NCBI GenBank assembly: GCA_027486795.1
Contig: JAIXOI010000006.1
Location: 38,406 to 102,405 of the forward strand
Length of the DNA stretch: 64,000 nt
Reading direction: 5' to 3'
Source of the DNA: Sphingobacteriales bacterium
GTDB lineage: Bacteria > Bacteroidota > Bacteroidia > Chitinophagales > CAIOSU01
Shown here: positions 20,021 to 63,761 of the stretch, in pieces
How the letters are laid out: the number at the start of each line of letters is the position of its first letter
How positions within the stretch are numbered: the first letter of the stretch is position 1
Position numbers and translations under genes: made by a program
The notes under the pieces: generated by a model
The model's input: the letters and a program-made list of their open reading frames with translations, nothing else
Databases searched by the model: none
Told to the model about the DNA's origin: nothing

Positions 20021-20076
20021 TTTTTGAATTGAAAATTTAAGATTCAAAATTTAAAATTGTCTCGAAGCAGGTAAGT

Positions 20077-20108
20077 CCCTCTCCCTCTGGGAGAGGTTAG
20101 GTGAGGGG
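20077..20108. repeat. REP-like palindrome CCTCTCCC-TCT-GGGAGAGG-TTAGGTGAGG
   Basis: 8-bp perfect stem with a purine-rich tail, shape typical of REP sequences. Confidence 0.6.
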
Positions 20109-20197
20109 GTAGTTTAAGTAGCTGGTTACTTGCGGGTTGCGGGTTTGAAATGCCACGATAGAAAGGCATAAACATTTGTAATGTTGTGCTGCTGAGT

Positions 20198-20346
20198 TGT
20201 GTCATGGTGAGCGGAGTCGAACCATCCGCAATATGTACACATAACACTTGTAAAAAAAATCAGCTTAATTTCCCAAAAACAGAACAGCGTTTTGCCACCT
20301 ACATTATGGATGGTTTCTCGTTTCAAACGAGACTCACCATGACACA
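20198..20346. mobile_element. 149-bp MITE/REPIN-like element
   Basis: Perfect 14-bp terminal inverted repeat TGTGTCATGGTGAG / CTCACCATGACACA and inner IR AACCATCC / GGATGGTT; no ORF. Confidence 0.65.
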
Positions 20347-20473
20347 TCCGGTACGCCCAGTACTTTAAGTTAATTAGGCTTGGAGGGGGTAATGGCCGAG
20401 GGATGAATTTTGAAACGCGGCTAATCCAACAATCGAAATAGAAAACCCCTCACCATCGACTATCGACCATGGA

Positions 20474-55151: not shown

Positions 55152-55315
55152 ATGCACAATGTACAATGTACGATGTACAAAGTACAATGTTTAAAATTGA
55201 AGGATGAGTAGGAGTATAAAATGAGTTGGCTTGAAATGTTAGGAAAGTACTAATCGAAAGGAGATAATCAATACATAAAACTATATCGTACTTTGTACCT
55301 CGTACATCGTACATC
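55152..55315. repeat. Inverted pair of heptamer arrays (ATGTACA)n / (TCGTACA)n inside the dcw operon
   Basis: ATGCACA ATGTACA ATGTACG ATGTACA AAGTACA ATGTTTA at 55152-55193; TCGTACT TTGTACC TCGTACA TCGTACA at 55286-55313; about 92-bp spacer. Confidence 0.88.
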
Positions 55316-56537: not shown

Positions 56538-57630
56538 CCCATATCGCATACTTATAAGCGGCGGCGGCACTGGCGGGCACATTTTCCCAGCCATAGCTAT
56601 AGCCAATGCTTTGAAAGCCCGCGACCCGCGAACAGCGTTTCTGTTTGTTGGCGCCGAGGGCCGTATGGAAATGCAAAAGGTACCTGAGGCTGGTTATGCC
56701 ATTGAAGGCTTGAATATTACTGGTTTTCAACGTGGCAATTTGTTGAAGAACTTCAGTTTGCCATTCAAAATTGCCAGCAGCCTAATGAAAGCCAATAGCA
56801 TCATCAGCAACTTTAAGCCCGATGTGGTTGTAGGTGTGGGTGGTTTTGCAAGTGGCCCGGTTATGTGGGTGGGTGCTAAAAAGGGTATACCAGTTTTGGT
56901 ACAAGAGCAAAACCAATTTGCGGGTATGACCAATAAACTGGTAGCCAACAAAGCCAATAAGTTTTGTGTAGCCTACGAAGGCATGGAGCGCTTCTTCCCG
57001 AAGGATAAAATTGTGATAACCGGCAACCCAGTGCGTGCCGAGATATTGAACCGCAACGTTACCCGCCAAGATGCTATAATCCACTTTAACCTAGAACCAA
57101 ACAAAAAGACCATCCTGATTATTGGCGGCAGTTTGGGTGCAAGGGCTGTTAACAATGCCATCAAAAAGGATATTGCACTGTTGCAAAATAGCGGACACCA
57201 AGTACTTTGGCAAACGGGCAAAATATACTTCGAGGAAATGAAAGCCGCTGCACAAGACTATGCCGATGTGCATGCCATGGAGTTTATAAAGCGCATGGAT
57301 TTAGCCTATGAAGTAGCCGATGTCATTATCTCTCGCGCTGGTGCTATTTCTATTTCGGAGTTGTGCTTAGTGGGTAAGCCAGTTATTTTGCTGCCTAGCC
57401 CCAACGTAACCGAAGACCACCAAACATACAACGCGCAAGCATTAGTGGATAAGAGTGCGGCGATTATGATAAAAGATGCAGTTGCTAACCAAGAGCTAGT
57501 GCCTGCAGTATTGGCATTGCTTAGCGATAACCAACAGCAACAACTCCTGGCAGAAAATATTAAAAAACTAGGTATAGCTAATGCAACTGAGCGTATTGCT
57601 GACGAAGTAATAAAATTGATTAAGAAATGA
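56524..57630 (+). CDS. murG: Lipid II GlcNAc transferase
   Basis: GGGTGGHIFP, GGFAS, EQN, TGNPVR, GGSLGA, SRAGA, HQ..NA. Confidence 0.97.
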   Translation: MQQHNPYRILISGGGTGGHIFPAIAIANALKARDPRTAFLFVGAEGRMEMQKVPEAGYAIEGLNITGFQRGNLLKNFSLPFKIASSLMKANSIISNFKPDVVVGVGGFASGPVMWVGAKKGIPVLVQEQNQFAGMTNKLVANKANKFCVAYEGMERFFPKDKIVITGNPVRAEILNRNVTRQDAIIHFNLEPNKKTILIIGGSLGARAVNNAIKKDIALLQNSGHQVLWQTGKIYFEEMKAAAQDYADVHAMEFIKRMDLAYEVADVIISRAGAISISELCLVGKPVILLPSPNVTEDHQTYNAQALVDKSAAIMIKDAVANQELVPAVLALLSDNQQQQLLAENIKKLGIANATERIADEVIKLIKK

Positions 57631-59060
57631 ACCTAGGAACGGTACATAGCGTATTTTTCATCGGCATTGGCGGCATTGGTATGAGCTCCTTGGCACGGTA
57701 CTTTCGCCACATTGGCGCGAAGGTGGCTGGCTATGACCGCACGGAAACCGCCCTTACCAAGCAATTGGTTGCCGAAGGAATGGCAGTTCATTATGAAGAT
57801 ATTATTGCTTTGATTCCTGCCGATGCAGAGTTGGTTATTTATACCCCTGCTATCCCAAAAGACCATAAGCAATTCAATTACCTAAAAAACGAAGGTAAAC
57901 TGTTGGTATTGAAACGCTCTGAAGTGTTGGAGATTCTCACCAAGGATAAGTTTACCATTGCTATTGGTGGCAGCCACGGCAAAACCACCGTAACCAGCAT
58001 GACAGCTCATGTGCTTACGCACAGCGGCTATGGTTGTACCGCATTTTTGGGTGGTATAGCAACCAACTATCACAGCAACTTTATAGCTGGCAACCCTGAT
58101 GTAATAGTGGTTGAAGCCGATGAGTTTGACCGCTCTTTTTTGCGTTTGCACCCAAATATTACCGTTATTACTGCCGTTGATACCGACCACTTGGACATAT
58201 ACGGTAGCCGCGAGGCTATTGAAGATACTTTTGTAGAGTTTGTAAGCAAACTACAGCCTAACGGTAAAGTGATTGCCCATCAAGACGTTACCATTCTGCC
58301 AAGGATTAAGGATAAAGAAGTATTGACGTATGGCATAATTGATGGAGCAGATTATCAAGCAACGAATATTCAAGTAGCTGGCGGTAAGTTTCAGTTTGAA
58401 GTAGAGAGTGAGTTAGAGAGCGAGCGCGAAAAAAATCAACCCGCAACTAATGTCATACTGAGCGGAGCCGAAGTACGTAACTCGCAACTCGCAACCCTAG
58501 CTATGGGCGGCCGCCACAATGTGCTCAACGCAACTGCTGCCATGGCAGTAGGTTTGCAGTTAGGTATTAGCATGGATAAAATAGCCACCGCCATCACTAG
58601 TTTTAAAGGTATTCAAAGGCGCTTTGAGTATGTTATCAATACTCCCGAGTTGGTTTACATTGACGACTACGCCCACCACCCCGAGGAAATACGTGCCTGC
58701 ATTAGTGGGGTTAGGGAGTTATTTCCGGGTAAGCGCATTACAGCTGTTTTTCAGCCACACTTGTTTAGCCGTACCAACGATTTATATCCTGGTTTTGCCG
58801 AAAGCTTGCAACTGGCCGATGAAGTGATATTGTTGAATATATACCCAGCCCGCGAATTGCCGATGTTGGGCGTTACCAGCGAATTGATATTGAATGCTAT
58901 AGAAGGCACTAGTAAAGAACTAGTAGCCGATGCCAATTTGATAAAAGTTTTAGCCAGCCGCCCTTTGGAGGTTTTGTTGACCATAGGCGCAGGCGATATT
59001 GATAAGCAAGTAGCAAAAATCAAAGATTATTTTACCCCTGAAAACCAAGCGAAAGCATGA
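57627..59060 (+). CDS. murC: UDP-MurNAc--L-Ala ligase, with an apparent ~20-aa repeat-derived insertion
   Basis: GIGGIGMS, GSHGKTT, EADEFDRSF, DHLD, HNVLN, RRF, DDYAHHP, FQPHLFSRT. Confidence 0.97.
   Translation: MNLGTVHSVFFIGIGGIGMSSLARYFRHIGAKVAGYDRTETALTKQLVAEGMAVHYEDIIALIPADAELVIYTPAIPKDHKQFNYLKNEGKLLVLKRSEVLEILTKDKFTIAIGGSHGKTTVTSMTAHVLTHSGYGCTAFLGGIATNYHSNFIAGNPDVIVVEADEFDRSFLRLHPNITVITAVDTDHLDIYGSREAIEDTFVEFVSKLQPNGKVIAHQDVTILPRIKDKEVLTYGIIDGADYQATNIQVAGGKFQFEVESELESEREKNQPATNVILSGAEVRNSQLATLAMGGRHNVLNATAAMAVGLQLGISMDKIATAITSFKGIQRRFEYVINTPELVYIDDYAHHPEEIRACISGVRELFPGKRITAVFQPHLFSRTNDLYPGFAESLQLADEVILLNIYPARELPMLGVTSELILNAIEGTSKELVADANLIKVLASRPLEVLLTIGAGDIDKQVAKIKDYFTPENQAKA
58401..58496. 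repeat. In-frame composite repeat in murC: hexamers, heptamers and a REP-like hairpin
   Basis: GTAGAG AGTGAG TTAGAG AGCGAG; CAACCCG CAACT; TGTCATACTGAGCGGAGCCGAAGTA (20 of 25 nt match 20200-20224); CGTAACT CGCAACT CGCAACC. Confidence 0.8.
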
Positions 59061-63201: not shown

Positions 63202-63314
63202 TCTTCGGTTGATGATCAAAACAATTAAAAGCGATTTTATATTTTGCAAATGATTGCTCTCGGTTTTAACCATGGGTAATAAATATCGTAATGTAATTAA
63301 CCGTTTTTGTAGGC

Positions 63315-63761
63315 ATGGCACATTCATTTTCTAAAATTTGGCTGCACTTGGTTTTCTCAACCAAAAACCGCGAGCCGTTAATTAAGGAGAAAATTGAAAA
63401 CGAAACATATCAATTTCTATGGAAGGAATTGAATGGATTAGGATGCCAGCCAAGAATAATAAATGGCATGCCTGACCATGTGCACCTGCTTTTTAGGCTC
63501 AATCCTCAAAAATCGGTAGCCGATGTGGTAAAGCAAATTAAAGGTTCAAGTTCACATTGGATTAATCAGAATATCAGCGATAACAATCAATCTCGATTTG
63601 CATGGCAAACGGGCTATGGGGTATTTTCTGTAAGTGAATCACAGCTGGTCAGAATAGAGGCATATATTAAGGAGCAGAAAGATCATCACAGAAAGTACAC
63701 TTTTATAGAAGAGTATAAAGGGTTTTTGAAAGCCCACGGGCTAGAGTGGGTTGAGGATTAG
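63315..63761 (+). mobile_element. tnpA: IS200/IS605-family Y1 HUH transposase, REP-associated (RAYT-like)
   Basis: HLVFSTKNR, DHVHLL (HUH), KG.SS, FAWQTGY, catalytic YI..Q..HH; no tnpB; flanked by palindrome cassettes. Confidence 0.9.

Follow-up and report, generated by a model that had tools for sequence, protein, structure and literature searches.

Repeat DNA carried in frame in a loop of the essential cell-wall gene murC of a Sphingobacteriales bacterium

Rickettsia palindromic elements (RPEs) are selfish palindromic repeats that lie in frame in unrelated housekeeping genes and give rise to fusions compatible with the fold of the host protein (Ogata et al., 2000, as cited in a review on MITEs, which are miniature transposable elements with inverted repeats; PMC10969869). 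Tagged repetitive extragenic palindromic sequences (REPs), with the tags GTAG or CGTC, are described by Di Nocera et al. (2013; PMC3733652) as palindromes of 20-40 bp that are present in several phyla, in tens to thousands of copies and mostly extragenic; some are located wholly within open reading frames (ORFs) of known proteins, where dimers encode 20-30 residues argued to reside in loops or linkers, and REP-associated tyrosine transposases (RAYTs) are proposed there as the mobilisers. Heptamer direct repeats are reported for Beggiatoaceae, Cyanobacteria, and a few Bacteroidetes, where they are mostly intergenic and often situated just upstream of starts; copies within genes mostly affect the margins of the encoded proteins, as with one at the extreme end of MurG (MacGregor, 2015, PMC4679880; Mrazek, 2007, cited there). 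In this work we describe a 27-nt hairpin unit nested in a heptamer tract within murC, the structural gene for UDP-N-acetylmuramate--L-alanine ligase, in a stretch of 64,000 nucleotides (the window) from the genome of a Sphingobacteriales bacterium (assembly GCA_027486795.1, contig JAIXOI010000006.1, positions 38,406 to 102,405). Like RPEs, this unit is inserted in frame in housekeeping genes (murC and the gene for methionyl-tRNA synthetase, MetRS) and relatives possess filled and empty sites. RPEs, however, are portrayed as elements of about 150 bp that encode a conserved peptide and are confined to Rickettsia, whereas the present unit has 27 nt, belongs to an unrelated family, and is found in free-living freshwater Bacteroidota; furthermore, it nests in heptamer arrays and several repeat families enter the same loop.

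The segment 58401-58496 falls within one open frame of 477 codons (57627-59060, plus strand), and we consider it probable, at roughly 0.75, that the extra loop encoded there is selfish repeat DNA that settled in a permissive site of an essential gene and is nearly neutral. What carries this reading is the identity of the repeats, the precise presence or absence of 27 nt, the nesting of one repeat in another, the recurrence in the murC loop and in MetRS, the constraint on the gene, and the support by assemblies. The peptide between KFQFEV and LAMGGRHN, as given by an initial annotation of the window, is confirmed by translation of the ORF. The components of the segment are listed in Table 1. 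Hexamers containing GAG, which the initial annotation had taken for a repeat family, are instead part of a local duplication of 12 bp, and bases 58401-58418 have no second copy in the genome under study (G000) in a short-word BLAST search of the 96 nt against the whole genome. In the same search, each base of 58437-58496 (positions 37-96 of the insert) is matched at seven or more other genomic places. The nesting proposed earlier was borne out, as the hairpin unit interrupts one heptamer of the YAACYCG tract at CAACT^CG and comprises nine whole codons, so that the frame is preserved; within the murC context, the only open frame of the sense strand is the one in use. In order, the unit is made up of a leader of 3 nt, GTCATACT, a loop of 12 nt (GAGCGGAGCCGA), and the return stem AGTA. 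A copy identical over 28 nt is located at C39:76507-76534 (C-numbers denote contigs of G000) and has no heptamer tract on its left side. Composite heptamer-hairpin-heptamer modules are encountered at C53:29330-29369 (40 nt, 95%), C49:4924-4972 (49 nt, 90%), and C17:80791-80837 (47 nt, 89%). Also, both matches that had been pointed out within the window itself are genuine: the heptamers of murC are the reverse complement of the TTGCGGG repeats near 20130, and the core of the hairpin equals the copy near 20200 at 20 of 25 positions, with stem differences that compensate each other (TACT/AGTA in murC vs TGGT/ACCA).

Table 1. Coordinates of murC, of the components of its insert, and of related repeat copies in the window.
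Feature	Position	Strand	Basis and remarks
murC (UDP-N-acetylmuramate--L-alanine ligase)	57627..59060	+	ORF of 477 aa; Pfam, PDB, and model match
Local in-frame tandem duplication, 12 bp x1.9 (peptide ESELESE)	58402..58424	+	Tandem Repeats Finder (TRF) period 12, score 39; also in G004
Left arm of YAACYCG heptamer tract (CAACCCG CAACT), codons Q271-T274	58437..58448	+	Sequence
27-nt hairpin unit, 9 codons N275-V283, NVILSGAEV	58449..58475	+	Sequence; absent from murC of G004
Right arm of heptamer tract (CG TAACTCG CAACTCG CAACC), codons R284-T290	58476..58496	+	TRF period 7 x2.4, 100% match; same in G004
Intergenic heptamer copy (TTGCGGG x2 on the plus strand)	20130..20143	-	Sequence; same family as the murC tract
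Type-A hairpin copy (GTCATGGT...ACCAT), left end of a MITE-like element	20201..20225	+	Sequence; equals C44:58606-58626

If loop length is defined by how many residues separate the conserved F257 from the conserved L291, MurC from G000 has a loop of 33 residues. Among 97 aligned homologues, out of 120 proteins listed, loops of 13 (n = 46), 12 (n = 24), 15 (n = 12), and 17 residues (n = 4) are found, one homologue each having 9 or 14, and loops of at least 20 residues occur in just nine sequences, all of which belong to a genus-level clade with at least 77% identity to the query. In a separate set of 30 genome loci (G000 and 29 relatives), the mode is 13 residues as well (14 of 30). The initial annotation, which gave about 11 residues as the usual length of a slightly shorter stretch, was therefore right in substance. 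The nearest named homologues of this MurC come from metagenome-assembled genomes of Chitinophagales and Sphingobacteriales.

In spite of its insert, this MurC is predicted to be a ligase with the domains, motifs, and fold of its family. Matches to PF01225 (residues 11-107), PF08245 (113-308), and PF02875 (331-440), all over the cut-off, place the three Mur-ligase domains in order, i.e., the N-terminal Mur_ligase, the central ATP-binding Mur_ligase_M, and Mur_ligase_C. MurC chains from PDB match with E-values from 2e-68 to 4e-63, and in the alignment these solved chains leave a gap opposite about 20 of the loop residues. Columns that are invariant across the 97 sequences are kept in G000 too, namely G115, H117, G118, K119, and T120, then D185, D187, H188, and L189, and further G295, N298, and D346-P352; we take them to represent the GxHGKT P-loop, DxDHLD, GGxHN, and DDYAHHP motifs of MurC. 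As judged from sequence comparison, murC is single-copy and under purifying selection: it is the sole MurC-level match in G000, the remaining matches being paralogues with E-values of 3e-15 or weaker, and outside the loop the ratio of nonsynonymous to synonymous substitution rates (dN/dS) is 0.086 vs G004, 0.089 vs G003, and 0.045 vs G002 (G001 to G005 being other genomes of the same genus).

An AlphaFold model of MurC has a mean predicted local distance difference test score (pLDDT) of 92.9 and superposes on the Haemophilus influenzae MurC with ligands (1p3d_B) with a Z of 48.1 and a root-mean-square deviation of 1.9 Å over 446 of the 477 residues. According to this model, the fold is intact and about 30 residues are extra relative to 1p3d_B. 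The insert is placed between strands 254-261 and 289-291 and is modelled as a short helix (residues 262-269, block mean 73) followed by coil (270-288), with pLDDT values below 50 at residues 275-281, which belong to the hairpin-derived part. The modelled insert would thus be a surface-exposed excursion of low confidence on an otherwise confidently predicted MurC, and its site stands 8 residues ahead of the conserved GGRHN motif. The earlier suggestion that repeats have created new protein sequence in a surface loop agrees with the open frame, the constraint on this single-copy gene, and the low-confidence excursion between two strands of the model, and the segment is probably translated.

The hairpin in murC is a member of a family. 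G000 contains 41 exact matches to a degenerate 21-nt pattern, against zero to the reversed pattern used as a control, and 49 copies are obtained when up to three mismatches are allowed. Twenty of these are of type A (GTCATGGT...ACCAT) and 29 are solo units. Type-A copies are mostly arranged in inverted pairs that have a spacing of about 100-115 nt and enclose a conserved inner sequence, for example at C2:1179/1281 and C8:30318/30431, and such pairs constitute a MITE-like element. The insert of murC, by contrast, is a solo hairpin of 27 nt and not an element of 70-300 bp bounded by terminal inverted repeats. The type-A copy of the window is part of an intergenic stack (20060-20350) that is composed of AATTT-type heptamers, a C-rich/G-rich palindrome (about 20075-20113), the two TTGCGGG units, and the type-A hairpin, with a degenerate partner end near 20322-20345. 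In 41 of the 49 copies, none of the four inner stem pairs is lost, and the stem dinucleotide occurs in seven forms (GG, CC, AC, CT, AG, AT, and TT) while the 12-nt loop is constant. The units start with WWT-GTCAY and finish with AGTA, AGGA, or similar. The family is found in 12 of 41 genomes, i.e., in all six of the genus, in five of 12 others of the family, and in one of 23 from other families of the order, the other genus members having 19-50 exact-pattern copies. As a small palindromic unit in many copies (41-49 in G000), this family resembles the REPs described by Di Nocera et al. (2013), and yet the copies inspected carry neither a GTAG nor a CGTC tag, none of the six matches in G000 to PF01797, the family of Y1 transposases, has this hairpin in its flanks, and the hairpin is found nested within heptamer arrays and within the loop of its own kind. 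In addition, the conserved part here is the loop, while in most REPs it is the stem. For the whole window, no Rfam family reaches its gathering score. A literature search with strings of 13-15 nt, confined to one collection of papers, gave a single irrelevant hit and no description of this hairpin, although similar cases may stand in supplementary tables of the papers cited here.

The proposal that the repeats target each other gains from the surroundings of the 29 solo units. In a manual reading of their flanks, which is less objective than a regular expression, ten lie in or right against YAACYCG tracts, two lie within other heptamer families (GTCTTGT and ACAAGAC), six are at the centre of a larger C-rich/G-rich palindrome, and three are inside the loop of another hairpin copy, so that 21 of the 29 are inside another repeat. 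With a strict regular expression, 4 of 29 solo hairpins are beside two or more full heptamer units, compared with 0.2% of genome positions. Five copies (those in murC and on C17, C49, C51, and C53) share the same orientation and the same junction, between CAACT and CG of one heptamer. Hairpins within the loop of a type-A hairpin are seen at C28:291856 and C42:89146, the same arrangement as in MetRS.

Heptamers dominate the tandem repeats of G000, as 352 arrays of period 7 are counted at a TRF score of at least 36 vs nine of period 6 and ten of period 3. They fall into about ten abundant families (AAGACAC, AACCAAT, AAGTATC, AAATCGT, and others). Although crude ORFs cover 84% of the genome, only 20 of the 352 arrays are fully inside such ORFs, which speaks for selection against insertion into coding sequence. 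An example of an array is located at 55285-55315 of the window, just upstream of ftsW. Of the 352 arrays, 126 are situated at most 60 nt upstream of a crude start codon, vs 21% of random non-ORF segments, and these start-proximal heptamers resemble the TAACTGA repeats of Beggiatoaceae. Tandem units of 7 nt in many arrays, mostly intergenic with occasional intragenic copies, are shared with the short tandemly repeated repetitive (STRR) type of sequences treated by MacGregor (2015); compared with the cases reported there, the murC tract differs by its position inside the central catalytic domain and G000 by having about ten abundant families rather than one.

Presence and absence of the repeats among relatives bear directly on their mobility. 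Besides G000, four genomes of the genus yielded murC, and G005 (78% completeness) gave no match. The murC gene of G004, with 96% amino acid identity, shares the duplication, and its uninterrupted heptamer tract counts just as many units; at the DNA level, precisely the 27 nt of the hairpin unit are missing from it. G001 possesses the heptamer tract together with a hairpin in opposite orientation upstream of the tract, which is read as STPLRMT, and the loops of G003 and G002 have no heptamers. Thirteen MurC proteins of the genus clade (P0001-P0013) were aligned, the repeat content of P0003, P0005, P0007, P0008, and P0012 being read from peptides only. NVILSGAEV occurs in P0001 and P0003, the latter having STPLRMT in addition. 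P0008 and P0012 combine STPLRMT with the heptamer-coded NQxxTRNSQ. P0002, P0004, and P0005 have loops with heptamers only, the tract of P0005 being shortened, and the HGPSTMDHG of P0007 corresponds to translated heptamers of the GGTCCAT type, which are found elsewhere in G000. Short and related loops that are free of repeats are present in P0006, P0010, and P0011 (..EGLSSDISHLTS, ..EGFSFPISHFIS, and ..KDFSFHISHPTA) and are probably ancestral. When 16 sequences were placed in a maximum-likelihood tree with the loop left out, the short-loop P0010 is sister to the repeat-laden P0012 (support 99/97) and P0006 is positioned inside a clade of repeat-bearing alleles. A scan of metagenomes for close murC alleles gave, among the matches listed, distant relatives at 43-51% identity.

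A second filled and empty pair comes from six intergenic hairpin loci of G000 that were compared with the five other genomes of the genus. At C53:29340, the heptamer tract of G003 is uninterrupted, and precisely the homologous 27 nt are absent from it, again at a CAACT^C junction; at this locus, G004 has an unrelated palindrome block. The hairpin of C17 is common to G000, G004, and G003. At C49 (4936), C51 (88374), C44:24968, and C39:76512, flanks are 89-99% identical to those of G004 and G003 and the whole repeat block is unrelated, its place being taken by other heptamer families or other palindromes, for example TGGTTAT-type heptamers where G000 has YAACYCG units with the hairpin. Whole repeat cassettes appear to have been replaced at these four loci, and as blocks differ between flanks of such high identity, they turn over much faster than their surroundings. 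Together with the varying repeat content of the murC loop and of the MetRS linker among genus members, the two precise 27-nt differences agree with the earlier statement that these repeats are mobile. The qualifier "actively" refers here to the time scale of species divergence (the synonymous distance dS of murC to its nearest relative is 0.175) and not to that of a population.

Within conserved proteins of G000, hairpins are found only in MurC and MetRS. The MetRS gene (C42:125724-127952, minus strand; Pfam domains tRNA-synt_1g, Anticodon_3, and tRNA_bind) carries two in-frame 27-nt units in a linker (residues 554-608) that precedes the tRNA-binding domain, and one unit is nested inside its partner's loop, which yields SVILSNVILSGVEGGAEG. 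The nested pair recurs in G003 together with a duplication of 12 nt, a tandem of two units is found in G001, and the MetRS of G004, of G002, and of six aligned outgroups is without units. Since few heptamer arrays are situated inside ORFs and only these two conserved proteins contain hairpins, insertions into coding regions are rare survivors. A gene for a CrtI-like amine oxidase (C18:170041-171555) has an in-frame insertion of 14-20 residues that starts with YKVQSTKY, YEVRGTKD, or a close variant and corresponds to translated GTACRAR heptamers. Four genus genomes have this insertion, and the eight other aligned homologues, including matches from the genus genomes G001 and G002, are without it. 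An ORF for a Crp-like (cNMP-binding) protein, C40:33442-34131, runs into a hairpin unit between ACAAGAC heptamers and ends there (tail NVILSGAEGHKTQD), and the repeat may have replaced the C-terminus. A heptamer-like stretch at C38:4646, in an ORF of 354 aa, was dropped as a coding case as it has no Pfam match.

Repeats are prone to break assemblies, and in one run (X13) contigs do end at 58343 and restart at 58554, as might be expected if a repeat had been misjoined into murC during assembly or binning. Such an artefact can hardly be credited, as contigs from three studies (X1 record 1, X3 record 19, and X14 record 13) cross the insert with 0 differences, runs from four studies contain all sampled words of 58200-58700, the exact MurC protein is encoded on 14 contigs, and the independent protein P0003 has the same NVILSGAEV. 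The genome may itself stem from some of the supporting runs, which makes their independence partial. No joint or indel variants are seen in the contigs of four runs, where rare variants are dropped, and polymorphism is not addressed by them.

How could the loop of G000 have arisen? The ancestral loop of the genus would have been devoid of repeats and short, with about 17 residues between F257 and L291 (type ..EGFSFxISHxxS), and in several lineages it would have been overwritten or lengthened by repeat families that are otherwise intergenic, i.e., arrays of YAACYCG heptamers, the 27-nt hairpin in either orientation, and, in one lineage, heptamers of the GGTCCAT type. In G000, a small local duplication would have been followed by the heptamer tract, and then by one 27-nt unit that entered a heptamer at CAACT^CG. 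Since the unit comprises exactly nine codons, it cannot shift the frame; selection would retain only copies that are read without a stop and only those at places where additional residues do no harm, such as the tip of the MurC hairpin, the interdomain linker of MetRS, or a C-terminus. The product would be a MurC with about 20 extra and probably disordered residues at the tip of a β-hairpin of the central domain, before GGRHN. Once present, a heptamer tract may offer the hairpin a preferred junction as well as homology for further exchange, which would explain the repeated hits on the same loop.

Several observations weigh against this explanation or limit it. Over the 21 nt to the left of the murC hairpin, G000 and G004 differ at seven positions, while the right arm is identical, and the left flank of G000 resembles the modules at C49 and C53; for such divergence, a module copied in by gene conversion is an explanation equal, if not superior, to a clean transposition. 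In the loop-free tree, six of 13 inner branches are open and, therefore, the number and the polarity (gain or precise loss) of the 27-nt events are not fixed. In the murC copy, the perfect stem is limited to 4 bp and the predicted fold is weak (-1.5 kcal/mol as RNA). The flanks of all six Y1_Tnp genes of G000 carry other palindromes rather than this hairpin, and no enzyme is linked to the unit. That the insert is tolerated rather than useful would follow from its variability, from which neutrality is argued. Finally, among the runs listed for 58200-58700, none is an RNA run.

For the movement of the unit, two explanations have to be weighed. Transposons of the IS200/IS605 type and RAYT-type systems, whose HUH (Y1) enzymes act on hairpin-defined ends, use a fixed short target, generate no target-site duplication, and excise seamlessly. 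That the 27-nt unit moves in a similar manner, as single-stranded DNA, site-specifically, without target duplication, and mobilised in trans by an enzyme of this class, has in our opinion somewhat less than an even chance. The fixed junction and the exact difference of 27 nt at two loci, without duplication, fit an insertion of this type, although each pair has one divergent flank and other copies reside in unrelated contexts. Also, no transposase is linked to the unit, which has one hairpin and not two subterminal ones. The Y1_Tnp genes of G000 amount to six matches to PF01797. One of them lies in the window (63297-63761, 154 codons between stops, E 9e-30), is RAYT-like, and is flanked by a different family of perfect palindromes; each of the five others has flanking palindromes of its own.

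Alternatively, repeats might have been copied into murC, and cassettes swapped, by gene conversion or homologous recombination between heptamer tracts combined with replication slippage, the numerous tracts of the genome providing dispersed homology; we consider this possible but somewhat less probable than an HUH-like movement. Besides the divergent left flank of the murC hairpin, the right flank of the C53 pair differs at 3 of 13 positions, the whole block is unrelated in G004 and G003 at four of six intergenic loci and the C53 block in G004, and P0005 looks like a heptamer-to-heptamer deletion of the hairpin and three units. Against such exchange stand the indels at two unrelated loci, which share their boundaries and measure exactly 27 nt; furthermore, the identical unit on C39 has no heptamer tract on its left, and units inside hairpin loops or inside a different palindrome are situated where homology of heptamers cannot guide. 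What probability these two mechanisms leave goes to a mixture of mechanisms or to something else.

It is tempting to go further and to regard the unit as an undescribed minimal class of mobile hairpins of Chitinophagales-type Bacteroidota, with a conserved loop that is recognised and a stem that covaries. Such a hairpin would insert without target duplication at a fixed phase of the heptamer, into its own loop, or into a larger palindrome; heptamer arrays would serve as landing pads, and sites once seeded in a tolerant loop (MurC) or linker (MetRS) would become self-reinforcing hotspots that go on producing peptide variants of essential proteins. As a joint claim, this remains tentative and is rather unlikely to be correct in all its parts.

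A function of the insert, either in cis as a hairpin of the mRNA (a translational pause, an RNase site, or an effect on stability) or as a peptide involved in the regulation of MurC or in contacts with proteins of division and cell wall, would be in line with the covarying stem and the conserved 12-nt loop, which point to some constraint on the element, with its site 8 residues before GGRHN, and with the recurrence of NVILSGAEV at the same place in two lineages. Nevertheless, relatives at 96% identity do without the unit, others have it inverted or have unrelated repeats, and the unit is also encountered in MetRS, at the end of the Crp-like ORF, and mostly in intergenic regions. In addition, the peptide is predicted to be disordered and the stem of the murC copy is among the weakest of the family, so a function seems improbable.

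Far less credible still is the idea that the segment is removed from RNA or protein, or skipped by the ribosome, and that the mature product would hence be devoid of the insert, including the peptide NQPATNVILSGAEVR that spans heptamer and hairpin. Translational bypass is exemplified by byp elements and by gene 60 of phage T4, and a short, hairpin-forming mobile insert in a coding region does have the anatomy of bypassed elements. Unlike these, the murC insert is decodable, its frame is open throughout, and the unit has nine whole codons. A take-off at ACT (T274) with landing at the next ACT would lead to a stop two heptamers later, no Rfam family, introns included, matches 58350-58550 at E-values up to 10, and no intein-like features are found in the 32 residues. 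Bypass, intron, and intein were therefore rejected. Selfish repeat DNA at a tolerant site is left as the best explanation, and the interpretation offered by the initial annotation is supported and its observations are confirmed, save for the GAG part.

For housekeeping genes that carry selfish DNA in frame, the best-known examples come from Rickettsia, a lineage that lives within cells and is under relaxed selection. The bacterium studied here, in contrast, is free-living in freshwater, and the enzyme that carries the insert in its catalytic domain is essential for the cell wall. Relative to known intragenic repeats, distinguishing aspects are the element itself (27 nt, untagged, with a conserved loop), the nesting of family in family, the position in a catalytic domain, and the fact that a single loop is used repeatedly, at least three repeat families having entered it in sister lineages. 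Such inserts break short-read assemblies and can mislead gene callers and alignments of marker genes. The natural series of alleles, i.e., empty, with heptamers only, with an added hairpin, and with an inverted hairpin, provides a gauge of the insertion tolerance of this loop and of the movement of small hairpins. If seeded sites are indeed hotspots, the murC loop would represent a natural, repeat-driven diversification of loops in essential proteins and not a one-off accident.

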